Position numbers and translations under genes: made by a program. A stretch of DNA of 42,652 nucleotides from a virus. Lineage: Duplodnaviria; Caudoviricetes. The DNA lies in IMG/VR virus record IMGVR_UViG_3300047440_000108, positions 1 through 42,652 of that record; one strand, 5' to 3'. Position 1 is the first letter of the stretch. Each line of letters begins with the position of its first letter. The notes below the pieces were generated by a model. It was given only the letters and a program-made list of their open reading frames with translations. It searched no databases and was not told where the DNA came from. Below are positions 1,240 through 32,456 of the stretch, in pieces.

Positions 1240-1357
1240 GCACTGGCGGGCCTTTGTCTCAACTTGGATCGATTGATGTGGATCAACCATCAGGATTTGG
1301 GGCGTACGAAAAACAGGAAAGCGAACGGGAGGTGGTCAGTGATGCGCGTTGAGACCG

Positions 1358-1386
1358 TTGCATTGTGTTACGAGAATCGTTACGTT
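1358..1386 (+). promoter_or_regulatory. Putative repressor-gene promoter with operator (1367-1383)
   Basis: TTGCAT-17 nt-TACGTT; operator GTTACGAGAATCGTTAC lies in the spacer. Confidence 0.5.
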
Positions 1387-1435
1387 GTTCCTGATTGGAA
1401 CAGCGGGAGGACTGGAAGTGCCTACGAGAGCGTTA

Positions 1436-2053
1436 GTGAAGCCATCAGGCAAGCAGGTAGACCGTGATGGTGGGGTCAACCGGGTGTGGTTTGTGGATCG
1501 CCTGGCCTCCCGCAACATCAGCCAGCGTAAGTTGGCGGGGCTGATGGATATGGATGCATCCGCGGTGTCATTGATGCTCTCGGGCAAGAGGAAGATGAGC
1601 GCACAGGAGGCAGGCGATGTGGCCAGGCTGCTGGGCGTGACAGTGGACGAGGTGCTCCGCCATGCGGGCATTGCGGTGCCGGTGAACGTGGAGAAGTCGG
1701 TGCCGGTGGTTGGGTATGTGGACGACCGCATGGAGGTGCGGTTCGGCCGTGCCAAGGGACCGCAGACATCCGTTGCGCCACCGGACTGTGGGAAGGGCTG
1801 CCAAGCCCTGCGGGTGCAAGCCGCCGGGATGATGGAGGGCTGGCTGGTGTTCTATTTCCCCACCGAAGGTGTCAGCTTGGAAGCTGTGGGGCGCCTGTGC
1901 GTGGTCAAAGTGGTGGGTGAGGACGCCCAACGCCTCAAACTGGTAGCCCGAGGGTACGAGGCGGGCTACCACGTGCTTTCGTCATTGAGAGGTGGCGAGC
2001 CCCTGCACGTCAGGCTGGAGTCGGCTGCTCCAGTGGTGTGGCTGAAGCAGTGA
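1436..2053 (+). CDS. cI: CI-like XRE-family repressor (start uncertain; ORF is open from 1349)
   Basis: ISQRKLAGLMDMDASAVSLMLSGKRKMS HTH_3 pattern, then VPVVGYV and a degenerate S24-like C-terminal domain. Confidence 0.8.
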   Translation: MKPSGKQVDRDGGVNRVWFVDRLASRNISQRKLAGLMDMDASAVSLMLSGKRKMSAQEAGDVARLLGVTVDEVLRHAGIAVPVNVEKSVPVVGYVDDRMEVRFGRAKGPQTSVAPPDCGKGCQALRVQAAGMMEGWLVFYFPTEGVSLEAVGRLCVVKVVGEDAQRLKLVARGYEAGYHVLSSLRGGEPLHVRLESAAPVVWLKQ

Positions 2054-3982: not shown

Positions 3983-4591
3983 ATGTCAGCAGTGCTTGAG
4001 CCCAGACCTAAATACAACGCAGTCAATCGCGTGGTCGCCACAGACCCCGAGGTTATCGCTCAAGCTGAGCACGCAATTTCGTGCATCGAAGAGGGCGATT
4101 TGCTGAAACATGCACTAGGAAAGGCCGGAATTGGCCGTGCAATGTTCAGCGCAGTGCTTGCAGGACAGCGAGAATTGGCTGCTCGTGTCGCGCGTGCTCA
4201 AGAAATCAGCGCTGACTTCTTGGTTGACGAGGCAATCGACGCTGCGCGCAACGAGCCAGACGTGATGCGCGCTCGTGTGATCGCTGAAAACAATCGCTGG
4301 GCAGCGAGCAGGCGCAACAGCAAGAAGTATGGCGATCGCATCGACCTCAACGTGACGCAGACGCTGGACATCAGCGGCACGCTGTTGGAAGCAAAGCAGC
4401 GCATGCTGCGTCCAATGCGCGACCAGCTGGACGTGACTGACGTGCAAACGCTTGATTTGCCTAGCGTTGCGCTGCTTGGAGCACAAGATAGTCAATCAAT
4501 GACTCCGATTGAGCCTGACATATTCGCAGCGCCTGAGCCCGTGAAGGTTGAGGCAGCACCGGTGAGCGATGAGCCTTCGATCTTCGATTGA
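3983..4591 (+). CDS. terS: Terminase small subunit
   Basis: Sf6/P22-like pattern ARAQEISADFLVDEAIDAA...NRWAASRRNSKKYGDR; upstream of terL. Confidence 0.8.
   Translation: MSAVLEPRPKYNAVNRVVATDPEVIAQAEHAISCIEEGDLLKHALGKAGIGRAMFSAVLAGQRELAARVARAQEISADFLVDEAIDAARNEPDVMRARVIAENNRWAASRRNSKKYGDRIDLNVTQTLDISGTLLEAKQRMLRPMRDQLDVTDVQTLDLPSVALLGAQDSQSMTPIEPDIFAAPEPVKVEAAPVSDEPSIFD
4405..4427 (+). repeat. Dispersed 20-22 bp motif, copy inside terS
   Basis: TGCGTCCAATGCGCGACCAGC (4407-4427) is the exact reverse complement of 31215-31235; 4405-4426 matches 31403-31424 at 21/22. Confidence 0.9.
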
Positions 4592-4770: not shown

Positions 4771-5370
4771 ATGCTGCGGACGAAAAAGTGTTCTGACTGC
4801 GCTTGCCACCTACCGCTGTCTGAGTTCAGCCCTCGCGCAGACGGCTGCGGGGACGGCTACCGATCCAACTGCAAGTTCTGCAAGCGCATCCAGTTAGCGT
4901 TCTGGAAGGCGGCCAACCCCGAGAAGGTGAAGGCGAACAAAGCGCGTCACCGAGCAGGCCAGTTTCAACGAGATCCCGAGCACGTTCGTTCGCTGCGGCG
5001 GACGGTGAAGACACGTGGCAGGGCCAAGCTAAGGCAGACCGCGCCGGAACGCCTGACTGAGGCTAGGCGTCTCGAAAGACTGCGCGCCAAGGAGCGGGAC
5101 CCGGTAGCGTGGGCGGCTGCAAAGCGTTTGCAGAAGCTGGCTCGTGAGGAGTTCATCAAGCAAGCCACACCGGCATGGGCGGACTTCGATGCGATGCGTG
5201 TGTTCTACGAACGGGCGAGGACGTTGAGTGATCGGGGTGAGCCCCACCACGTCGACCACATTGTCCCGTTGAAGGGTGAACGTGTATGCGGCCTGCACGT
5301 TCACACGAACCTACAGGTGCTGCCGGCCCGGGCCAACATCCTCAAGAGCAACAAGTACCATGCCAGCTAG
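4771..5370 (+). CDS. HNH endonuclease with N-terminal zinc ribbon
   Basis: CSDC...CKFC; TPAWAD...HHVDHIVPLKGERVCGLHVHTNLQVL...NILKSN. Confidence 0.9.
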   Translation: MLRTKKCSDCACHLPLSEFSPRADGCGDGYRSNCKFCKRIQLAFWKAANPEKVKANKARHRAGQFQRDPEHVRSLRRTVKTRGRAKLRQTAPERLTEARRLERLRAKERDPVAWAAAKRLQKLAREEFIKQATPAWADFDAMRVFYERARTLSDRGEPHHVDHIVPLKGERVCGLHVHTNLQVLPARANILKSNKYHAS

Positions 5371-29854: not shown

Positions 29855-30963
29855 CCCAGCATCTTCTCGGCCACCAACCCAGCGGCATTGGTGGCGGTGT
29901 CCTCCATCAGCCAGGCGTAGACCTTGGTGGTCTGCGCGCTGGTGTGGCCGAGCATCTGCATCACCTGCTCGAGCGACAGCTGGCCGGTGGAGAGCGCCAC
30001 GCTGGCGAAGGTCCGTCTGAGATCGTGCATGGTCAGGTCGGGCAGGTTCTCTTCCTCACACACCCGGGCCCAGAACTTCTTCGGTGACAGCAGCCCGGTC
30101 AGCGTGCCTGACGTGACCGGCAGGTACTTGTCGATCACCTCGCGCGCTGCCGGCGGCAGGTAGATGATCCGCGCGTAGCCACCGTCATCGGTCTTGTGCT
30201 CGTCCAGCAGGATGCGGTTGCCATGTAAGTTGTTCCACTTTGCTGCGGCGATCTCCCCCTTGCGCGCACCGGTGAACAGCAACAGCCACACGAAGGTGGC
30301 GCTGGCCACGCTCGGCCCATCCAGCTCCTTGCGCAGCCGCGCCACGATGCGCGCCACTTCCTCGCGGCTGGCCTTGCGCCGGCGCTTGGTCTCCTTGTTG
30401 CGCTCGACCCCCTTGCACGGGTTGTCGGCCACGGCTGTCCACTTCAGCGGACGGTGGGCGAAGTTGAACATGGTCGAGGCGAGCGCCAGCGCGCGGTTGG
30501 CGGCGATGGGGCCGTCCTCGCTGATGGCTTCGTGCAGATCGCCCATCACCTCGTAGGTCACCTCGGACAGCCGCAGCTTGCCGATCGCTGGGGCCAGGTG
30601 GTTGGTCCAGTTCCGCTGGTCGCTGTCCGAGGATTTCTTCTTGCTGGCGCGGCGCTTCCAGAACTCGGCCCACAGCTCGGCCACGGTCGGCTCGTTTCGG
30701 GCGTCAGACCGCACCAACTGGGGGTCCTTGCCGGCGGCCACGTCCTGCAGCATGGCCTTGGCCACGGTGCGCGCCTGGGTCAGCGTGAGCTGGCCGTAGT
30801 TGCCGATCTTGGGCCGGCGCTGCTTGCCGCCCTTGGTCCTGAAGAACAGGTAGAACACCTTCTTGGTGGGGAAGCAGCGCAGGTGCAGCCCGTGGATCTC
30901 GGCGTCCCGCAGGATGTCGCCGTTGACGGCCGACTTGATGTTGGCTTCTTTGAGTTCAGCCAC
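29851..30963 (-). CDS. int: Tyrosine integrase with N-terminal arm-binding domain
   Basis: FTGARKGEI, HDLRRT, LGH...Y; N-terminal GLHLRC...KIGNYGQLTLTQAR; GGAGGA SD before GTG 30963. Confidence 0.95.
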   Translation of the reverse strand: MAELKEANIKSAVNGDILRDAEIHGLHLRCFPTKKVFYLFFRTKGGKQRRPKIGNYGQLTLTQARTVAKAMLQDVAAGKDPQLVRSDARNEPTVAELWAEFWKRRASKKKSSDSDQRNWTNHLAPAIGKLRLSEVTYEVMGDLHEAISEDGPIAANRALALASTMFNFAHRPLKWTAVADNPCKGVERNKETKRRRKASREEVARIVARLRKELDGPSVASATFVWLLLFTGARKGEIAAAKWNNLHGNRILLDEHKTDDGGYARIIYLPPAAREVIDKYLPVTSGTLTGLLSPKKFWARVCEEENLPDLTMHDLRRTFASVALSTGQLSLEQVMQMLGHTSAQTTKVYAWLMEDTATNAAGLVAEKMLG

Positions 30964-31252
30964 GGCGCTGTTCCTCCGTGAGGCCCGCCCACCAGCGGCG
31001 AAACTCAACCGGGTCGTACCAGTGGTTTGCGTGGACCCTGTTACCACTAGAGTGGTTCAGCTTCGCAGTCGGCCCTTTGTAGTGCATGAGCTTGGCGCTC
31101 ATGACCCTGGGGGGTACACCTAACTCTTCGCACATCTCTCTGAACGATCGACACGGCGGCCGAGCCACCTTGCGCGGACCGGGCTTGAACCCGTAGGTGG
31201 CCTTCGTAACGAGCGCTGGTCGCGCATTGGACGCACTCGAACTTGATTTCAC
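30956..31252 (-). CDS. Excisionase-like HTH protein
   Basis: SFREMCEELGV...WYDPVEFRRWW; overlaps the int start. Confidence 0.55.
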   Translation of the reverse strand: MKSSSSASNARPALVTKATYGFKPGPRKVARPPCRSFREMCEELGVPPRVMSAKLMHYKGPTAKLNHSSGNRVHANHWYDPVEFRRWWAGLTEEQRRG

Positions 31253-31424
31253 GTGATGCCCCTTGTCTATAAGTTACTGAAAACGTTACAGACGTGATGC
31301 TACATGAACCCCCGTGATCTTGTCAAATAAGACTTTTAAACAGGAGGGCTATCGCCGGGAAGCCCAGTGTTTACAAGGGTTTAAGCCGAGTACGGAGATT
31401 CACTGGTCGCACATTGGACGCAGC
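31215..31424. mobile_element. Putative attP: arm-like direct repeats (31216-31235, 31403-31422) flanking core GACTTTTAA (31331-31339)
   Basis: CTGGTCGC(G/A)CATTGGACGCA twice (19/20 identical); core equals a tRNA-Lys(UUU) anticodon loop; AT-rich; adjacent to int. Confidence 0.65.
31273..31326 (-). promoter_or_regulatory. xis/int promoter with downstream operator-like site (31273-31289)
   Basis: TTGACA-18 nt-TAGCAT; GTTACTGAAAACGTTAC. Confidence 0.65.
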
Positions 31425-31425
31425 C

Positions 31426-31500
31426 GGACCCCTAGCTCAATGGTAGAGCACAGCCCTTTTAAGGCCGAGGTTCAGGGTTCGAGTCCCTGGGGGTTCACCA
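31426..31500 (+). tRNA. tRNA-Lys(UUU)
   Basis: Cloverleaf: GGACCCC/GGGGTTC acceptor, GCTC/GAGC D-arm, CAGCC-CTTTTAA-GGCCG anticodon arm (one A:C mismatch), CAGGG-TTCGAGT-CCCTG T-arm, encoded CCA. Confidence 0.93.
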
Positions 31501-31501
31501 C

Positions 31502-32272
31502 TCACGACATCAGCCACGCCAGCTCGATTCGTTCCTTGGCGACTGCGAAGTAGCCGGCGTCCTGCTCCATGCCGATGAACTTGCGGCCGGTGCTGGCGCA
31601 TGCCACCCCGGTGGTGCCGCTGCCCATCGTGTTGTCGAGCACCGTGTCGCCTTCGCCGGTGTAGGTCCGTACCAGGTATTCCATGAGCGCCACTGGCTTC
31701 TGCGTAGGGTGCAGAACTTCACTGTTCGGGTTGGGGAAGTCGAGCACCTGGCGCGGGTATCCGGTCTTCTCTATCACCCGACTTAGCTGGTGGGACGCCC
31801 GCGCAGGGTTCACGCCCTTGTCGCCGGTCAGGTATCTCTGGGGTCTGCTCCACGCGGTGTTGCAGTCTTCCAGCCCTTGAGGAAAGTAAGGCATGTTCTT
31901 CTGCGAGCCGTTCGCGGTGGCCCCGCTGCTGAACACAGTGATCGTTTCAACGTCTTTAAGAGGCTTCAGCTTCGCGTTGGTGAAGCCCGCCGGCCGTGAC
32001 TTTCTCCAGTACCAATCGTACTTGTACCAAGCCAAATTGGAGAGCCGCAGATTGGACGCGAACGGCTCGTCCCCGAACAGGACGACCGCGCCGTTCGGTT
32101 TGACGACACGTTTGTACTGCGCCCACAAAGCGTCAAACGGGATGACGGAATCCCACTTACACGCGGTTGTGCCATATGGTAGATCGCACAGCACCAGATC
32201 GACGCTGGCAGCCGGTAGGTCGCGCATCAACCTAAGGCAGTCGCCTTGGTAAAGCTGCAGGTCATCGGTCAT
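31502..32272 (-). CDS. Orphan N4/N6 DNA methyltransferase (beta class)
   Basis: DLPY, HPTQKP, VLDNTMGSGTTG. Confidence 0.93.
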   Translation of the reverse strand: MTDDLQLYQGDCLRLMRDLPAASVDLVLCDLPYGTTACKWDSVIPFDALWAQYKRVVKPNGAVVLFGDEPFASNLRLSNLAWYKYDWYWRKSRPAGFTNAKLKPLKDVETITVFSSGATANGSQKNMPYFPQGLEDCNTAWSRPQRYLTGDKGVNPARASHQLSRVIEKTGYPRQVLDFPNPNSEVLHPTQKPVALMEYLVRTYTGEGDTVLDNTMGSGTTGVACASTGRKFIGMEQDAGYFAVAKERIELAWLMS

Positions 32273-32456
32273 ACGTTCCTTGTGTCGTATTCGTTCTCAA
32301 ACACCGATCCTCAAACGCCTCGATCTCGCGCTCGGGGTACAGTACCCGCCGGCCGAACTTCATGAACCGCGGCCCCTCCCCGGCCACCCGCCAGTTGGCG
32401 AGCGTTCCGGTGGAGACGCGCAGGCGATCGGCGGCTTCTTTGGGCAGGAGGTTCAT
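32262..32456 (-). CDS. AlpA/Xis-like HTH protein
   Basis: LLPKEAADRLRVSTGTLANWR..GEGPRFMKFGRRVLY. Confidence 0.88.
   Translation of the reverse strand: MNLLPKEAADRLRVSTGTLANWRVAGEGPRFMKFGRRVLYPEREIEAFEDRCLRTNTTQGTYDR

Follow-up and report, generated by a model that had tools for sequence, protein, structure and literature searches.

A loop-only attachment site beside a complete tRNA-Lys gene points to probable tRNA-dependent lysogeny in a soil phage related to Ralstonia phages

The attachment site (attP) of the soil phage described here is probably genuine, well formed and of the tRNA-replacing kind, and its sequence features make tRNA-dependent lysogeny the likely lifestyle of a member of a phage family new to this strategy; the strategy itself is already published for other phages. 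The window, by which we mean the whole stretch of DNA that was analysed, is a complete virus record of 42,652 bp with terminal repeats present. In the mechanism that we propose, the integrase would cut the host tRNA-Lys(UUU) gene in two at its anticodon loop, with a crossover placed in the loop on the evidence of junctions in relatives, and nothing would be rebuilt. The complete phage tRNA-Lys gene behind the right arm would stand in for the broken host gene. It would come to lie on the same strand as the host 5' half and 86 nt beyond it, where the host tRNA promoter would drive it, and RNase P would trim a precursor made of the host 5' half, the 86 nt, and the phage tRNA. Lysogens would be expected to depend on the phage tRNA.

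The head and tail genes are of podovirus type, and the genome also codes for a DNA polymerase, a primase, a helicase, an excisionase, and a tyrosine integrase; its match to a repressor is weak (Table 1). The closest named phages are the Ralstonia phages DU_RP_II, RpY1, and C22 (capsid 78-79% and polymerase 67-73% identity); capsid, polymerase, and gene order in common, together with a size of about 42 kb, place the phage among the DU_RP_II/RpY1/C22-like phages, which is not an assignment at genus level. Its integrase shows 52% identity to those of DU_RP_II and C22 and 54% to one encoded on a Burkholderia lata contig, and across 45 homologues the residues R234, K257, H313, and R316 are invariant and H340 and Y349 almost so. 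Between the integrase start and the left arm lies an insert of about 250 bp (30956-31252, minus strand) holding a small reading frame; L183 has a different insert here, most relatives have none, and similar DNA is found upstream of the L005 integrase. Elsewhere in the genome, an endonuclease VII-like gene sits between the terminase subunits (4771-5370). The arm-type site within the terminase small-subunit gene, which the original prediction passed over, recurs in 21 of the 46 viral loci with the arm pattern, including L054, L017, L011, L023, and L036; since the encoded residues vary along with the DNA motif, the DNA itself seems to be kept, and the copy may link integrase binding with packaging.

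Table 1. Features of the attachment region and related genes, in coordinates of the 42,652-bp window
Feature	Position	Strand	Remarks
Repressor-like gene, weak match	1349..2053	+	PHROG 4, E 1.5e-06
Third arm-type site, exact left-arm copy, in terminase small-subunit gene	4407-4426	-	IHF-like box 28 bp off
Tyrosine integrase, 370 aa	29851..30963	-	Domains PF13356 (arm binding) and PF00589 (catalytic)
Left arm-type site, two tandem 9-10 bp repeats	31216..31235	+	Motif also beside integrase start in relatives
IHF-like box, left arm (predicted)	31270..31283	-	Kept in L047, L001, L272, L183
Putative sigma-70-like promoter aimed at integrase	31297..31326	-	-35 box just left of core
attP core: tRNA-Lys(UUU) anticodon loop (31333-31339) after GA, no tRNA 3' half downstream	31331..31339	+
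IHF-like box, right arm (predicted)	31371..31383	+	CAA 34 bp from loop end, 29 bp from arm
Right arm-type site	31403..31422	+	63 bp past loop vs 85 bp in commonest relatives
Complete tRNA-Lys(UUU), anticodon TTT, CCA encoded	31426-31500	+	ARAGORN; Rfam 64.4 bits vs cut-off 29
DNA methyltransferase, convergent with tRNA	31502..32272	-	PHROG 67
Excisionase-like gene	32262..32456	-	PHROG 66, E 4e-08; 86% to L400

The original prediction placed a core, GACTTTTAA, between two arm-like repeats, and this layout was borne out: the loop starts 117 bp from the left arm, and 117 or 118 bp is also the distance in 16 of the 34 family rows with a called loop. The 9-mer has a single copy in the 42,652 bases when both strands are searched, and its 7-mer CTTTTAA has only two, in the core and in the tRNA loop at 31456; the probability of meeting them by chance anywhere between the arms is about 0.002 and 0.03, respectively. 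The core had been described as the Lys(UUU) loop plus two stem bases. The loop does match tRNA-Lys genes, but the GA before it is found in 24 of 34 relatives irrespective of isotype (hand count) and thus probably belongs to the integrase's own core site, so that the shared core may be only 7 bp. Because the 9-mer is identical in the tRNA-Lys(UUU) genes of Sinorhizobium, Shinella, and Methylobacterium and also in tRNA-Lys-type stretches of Burkholderiaceae, it cannot name the host. Immediately after the loop stands an A, in contrast to the TC of the Lys, Asn, Thr, and Phe relatives, and the right core-type site may therefore be weakened. The two boxes flanking the core were called IHF-like by the IHF consensus, and this box pattern was found at 10 loci, 2 of them within the family. 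The putative promoter aimed at the integrase agrees with the consensus at 10 of 12 positions and is the sole match in 30900-31800 (shuffle mean 0.1), whereas the tRNA strand of the same interval showed no promoter-like site in this consensus scan, which may overlook real promoters. RNA folding from the core to the tRNA revealed nothing special in structure (z -0.06).

A short core (about 10 bp; here 7-9 bp) at the anticodon loop, arms on both sides, and a tyrosine integrase are what defines an attachment site of tRNA-dependent lysogeny, and all of them are present here. A canonical tRNA-rebuilding attP of the Boilgate or DU_RP_II type would contain the tRNA 3' half from the loop to CCA; here, at most a doubtful vestige of it was found, and the stretch between the core and the right arm gave no tRNA-like match and no T-arm motif. 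The prediction that the site could not rebuild the host gene is thus upheld; 25 two-armed relatives do have a half. These relatives come from a locus set defined by integrases of at least 39% identity, matched from the N-terminus, in viral, metagenome, and phage collections, which comprises 47 rows, many closely related to one another, in addition to this phage. A tRNA 3' half is present in 37 of the 47 (in 35 as judged by motif, and in L242 and L074 from reading the sequence). The 25 two-armed rows among them represent true attP sites; the other 12 are one-armed and look like integrase-side junctions, whose tRNA half may be the host's. The other ten rows divide as follows: three end at the contig end (L183, L063, and L204), four have no recognisable site (L005 and L067, on one contig, L070, and L072), L046 has a bare Asn loop with the right arm missing, and in L146 (= L004) and L179 two arms enclose a core unlike any tRNA loop, which suggests that these last two probably target other genes.

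The targets of the family include tRNA genes for Asn, Lys(UUU), Lys(CUU), Thr, Pro, and Phe. In the Pro-targeting relatives, the host-side and integrase-side junctions are identical only from the loop or just before it, and the crossover was therefore placed at the loop. Of 22 records searched with Rfam, only one, a host-side junction, yielded a full tRNA; the eight complete or near-complete phages (all six virus records at least 90% complete, DU_RP_II, and C22) had none. Among the members examined, only this phage joins a two-armed loop-only site with a tRNA gene, and the isotypes of the two agree. The pattern of an arm followed by a tRNA had one match in viral contigs, arising by chance, and an excisionase scan returned three loci, all on contigs already in the locus set. 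As a separate observation, the tRNA half in the DU_RP_II attP (L001, 2525-2582) resembles a tRNA-Lys stretch of Bradyrhizobium (95%) but not the Burkholderiaceae type in L032, and the DU_RP_II record annotates a 12-bp attL away from the Lys loop core.

The complete tRNA-Lys(UUU) that had been predicted downstream on the same strand was recovered by both ARAGORN and Rfam. It begins 3 bp past the right arm, with 86 nt separating it from the core, and the layout of arm, core, and tRNA supports its predicted position behind the host tRNA promoter after integration. Its anticodon stem (GCC/GGC with one A-C mismatch) had been interpreted as recoded to keep the gene from being targeted, and this part of the prediction found no support. 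The C31-G39 tRNA-Lys(UUU) pattern matched no fewer than 120 viral stretches, most of which are tRNA clusters; of the first 80 matches listed, 62 hold at least two tRNAs, and at least 4 of the 120 listed, 40 of which have short flanks, show an integrase-like frame. In addition, L301 and L111 have a loop-only core between arms and a nearby tRNA-Lys whose loop flanks equal those of the core. The stem is therefore an ordinary phage type, although it may still shield the tRNA gene from the phage integrase, as the sites have GA before the loop in 24 of 34 rows. Both of these loci deserve a description of their own: in L301 (1220-1560), whose integrase is unrelated, two arm repeats enclose a Lys(UUU) loop-only core and a complete tRNA-Lys follows the right arm on the same strand, a matching layout in another family, and L111 (2600-2900) belongs to an AT-rich phage with a distant integrase (27%), in which arms flank a Lys(UUU) loop and the opposite strand encodes a complete tRNA-Lys. 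The loop 7-mer of the phage tRNA is identical to that of the core, and the crossover might accordingly take place in the tRNA's own loop (31456-31462), with its 3' half rebuilding the host gene in the canonical way; a second integration into a phage tRNA has been speculated upon in PMC10865867. We regard this as very improbable, because both arms lie on one side of that loop with no further arm nearby at up to 4 mismatches, the crossover position of the family maps to 31333, and pairing between the 3' stem strand and GA-type host stems would fail.

The geometry of the right arm suggests that the site has been maintained. The arm is 22 bp shorter than in the commonest relatives, with 11 bp lost on each side of the IHF-like box: the distance from loop to arm is split by the box into 45 + 40 bp in the commonest relatives (85 bp), 56 + 51 bp in L165, and 34 + 29 bp in this phage, as measured where a box was called (7 of 24 relatives had no call). 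Across 20 loci with 10 distinct values, loop-to-arm distances fit a period of 10.5 bp (R 0.78; p 0.00015, which is optimistic because the loci are related), and this phage is 1.1 bp off the mean phase. Random decay would seldom take one turn from each side, and a loss of 11 bp on each side preserves the helical phase, so a working attP is favoured over a decayed one. The opposite reading is that the attP is a decayed remnant and that the tRNA arrived separately with the methyltransferase, offsetting cleavage of the host tRNA-Lys or meeting lytic codon demand. The altered right flank of the core would fit it, as would the decayed sites known from the family (L046, L070, and L005), the common phage type of the tRNA, and the fact that PrrC targets tRNA-Lys(UUU) (PMC10264068). 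Moreover, the tRNA and the methyltransferase occupy one gap that is absent in the closest relative L003, where the excisionase follows directly after the right arm. However, a remnant of this kind would hardly have shortened both right-arm segments by one helical turn; the integrase, excisionase, and repressor-like genes are intact, the tRNA anticodon is that of the core although the family uses at least 6 isotypes, and no promoter for lytic expression was found. We consider decay with a separately acquired tRNA rather unlikely.

A further question is whether the phage tRNA would be needed once the core has been used. If the host had several tRNA-Lys(UUU) genes, or if the true target were a non-tRNA sequence sharing the 7 bp, integration could proceed with the tRNA dispensable. 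Records with multiple copies do exist (up to 5 tRNA-Lys(UUU) pattern matches in gammaproteobacterial records), the cores of L146 and L179 are non-tRNA, and the secondary sites of phage Fionnbharth require little core identity (PMC10865867). Relatives that lost the half and gained no tRNA (L046, L146, and L179) also count against the main reading. A dispensable tRNA leaves unexplained the presence of a cognate gene so near the arm (3 bp), given that tRNA genes are missing from every complete relative. In addition, the tRNA-Lys(UUU) pattern gave one tRNA-like match in each of three Hyphomicrobiales replicons (3.5-4.6 Mb), and the gene is single-copy in S. meliloti 1021 according to Table 3 of PMC11476347. 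We therefore hold this reading to be unlikely and prefer replacement of the host gene. Regarding integrated copies, eight of 11 sequencing runs yielded no attL or attR of this phage; the sole run covering the core contains the free, intact attP at a depth of 21.5 and may be the source run. The integrase scan of a genome collection returned one locus, a spurious match of 40 residues, and no prophage of this lineage.

The loop-only site is very probably a derived state that arose from a canonical tRNA-rebuilding site by loss of the tRNA half, as the 25 two-armed sites that keep the half suggest. In a quick tree of 35 integrases, this phage groups with L183 (support 99) and then with the Asn-targeting L273 (98); a single base separates the Asn loop from the Lys(UUU) loop. 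A switch between these targets may have gone in either direction, as DU_RP_II-like members further out also target Lys(UUU), and we hold the loss of the half with more confidence than the direction of the switch. L183, whose integrase is 94% identical, has the left arm and the core in common, and its identity to this phage ends at 31339, six bases before the contig end. These six bases begin with GG rather than a TC-type stem and could come from the 3' half of a host tRNA with a C31-G39 pair, which leaves L183 uninformative. A possible remnant of a tRNA-Asn 3' end in the right flank reached significance with 2 of the 5 Asn rows (4 and 0 of 500 shuffles), with the signal partly driven by the IHF box, and the same test was positive for 1 of 3 Thr rows and the one Phe row, and for 0 of 10 Lys rows.

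Loci resembling the host side of such an integration were found among 121 metagenome matches to the arm, most of which are chance matches in coding DNA; three stand out. L243 opens with an amidohydrolase gene in divergent orientation and a promoter-like site; next come the 5' half of a tRNA-Lys, broken at the loop, and, after 88 bp, the same arm, followed by a second, Hyphomicrobiales-like tRNA-Lys(UUU) with a group I intron in the anticodon (347-619; Rfam 38.7 bits, below the cut-off of 50), and the stretch stops just short of the 3' end of this tRNA. L213 (1549-1832) is the same locus with most of the 5' half deleted and the intron-bearing tRNA-Lys complete. The amidohydrolase is about 70% identical to Hyphomicrobiales proteins, and the broken half of L243 has a Sinorhizobium/Shinella tRNA-Lys stem, while the intact copy has a different one. 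The intron in the anticodon would also block re-integration. In L232 (619 bp), a decayed tRNA-Arg 5' half is followed by 49 bp, the arm, and, one base past it, an intact tRNA-Arg(UCU). None of the three has an integrase in view or an IHF box, and their spacing is off-phase (by +2.9 and -4.6 bp), which means that a different element may have left them; the mechanism gains support from them where elements with this arm are concerned, but not in the case of this phage. Four amidohydrolase loci sought as empty-site controls for L213 had no tRNA-Lys adjoining. Taken together, these observations allow a broader reading, which we put forward tentatively and regard as possible rather than probable. 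The 210 bp from core to CCA would form a tRNA-swap cassette that has no promoter and becomes active only upon integration; changing a single loop base (Asn to Lys) and carrying a spare tRNA would open a new target without a matching 3' half; and after decay of the element the foreign tRNA would remain as the host's only tRNA-Lys(UUU), hence the group I intron-bearing tRNA-Lys in the alphaproteobacterial chromosomes of L243 and L213. A narrow literature search for a group I intron in alphaproteobacterial tRNA-Lys found nothing, which does not imply absence from print.

Close counterparts of the proposed strategy are known. Lo5R7ANS is a podovirus. Prophages like it in S. meliloti AK21 and RU11/001 break tRNA-Leu(UAG) and carry a replacement (PMC11476347, a case to which PMC12429752 also points). 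They resemble the present phage in being proteobacterial, with a tRNA gene broken centrally and an isotype-matched tRNA carried, and differ in the tRNA targeted, in junctions observed in host genomes, and in belonging to another phage group (PMC11476347). Since a proteobacterial tRNA-replacing case is already published there, this phage is not the first; narrow literature searches for a replacement tRNA with an integrase in Proteobacteria found nothing, from which absence from print does not follow. The original prediction had rightly pointed to tRNA-dependent lysogeny in actinobacteriophages: it is defined in PMC10865867 for Fionnbharth K4, Cluster L, Cain, Gaia, and Mollymur. As in those systems, a tyrosine integrase with arm sites goes with an anticodon-loop core (8-17 bp in theirs), no tRNA would be rebuilt, a cognate phage tRNA is carried, and close relatives use a canonical long core; tRNA-Lys(UUU) is their commonest target (PMC10865867). 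The phage described here belongs to an unrelated family (DU_RP_II/RpY1/C22-like, 42.6 kb) and is known from sequence alone. The Fionnbharth tRNA lies apart from attP and has its own measured promoter (PMC10865867), whereas the tRNA here lies 3 bp past the right arm on the host-tRNA strand, with no promoter found. In Firmicutes, the Lactobacillus johnsonii prophage Lj965 reportedly rebuilds no tRNA and carries a cognate copy (cited in PMC10865867). Closer to home, DU_RP_II and C22 share these arms, with a Lys(UUU) loop likewise at +117, but keep the tRNA 3' half and carry no tRNA gene, and in the 9.3 kb of RpY1 that was examined no integrase, arm, or tRNA of this kind was found.

The prevalence of tRNA-dependent lysogeny outside Actinobacteria and its order relative to canonical integration are left open in PMC10865867. 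What this work adds is comparative evidence that such a site would derive from canonical sites, with the helical phase of the intasome kept through the loss. The cassette is compact enough for plasmid work, and the host-side scars suggest that elements of this kind can permanently swap an essential tRNA gene for a foreign, even intron-bearing, one.
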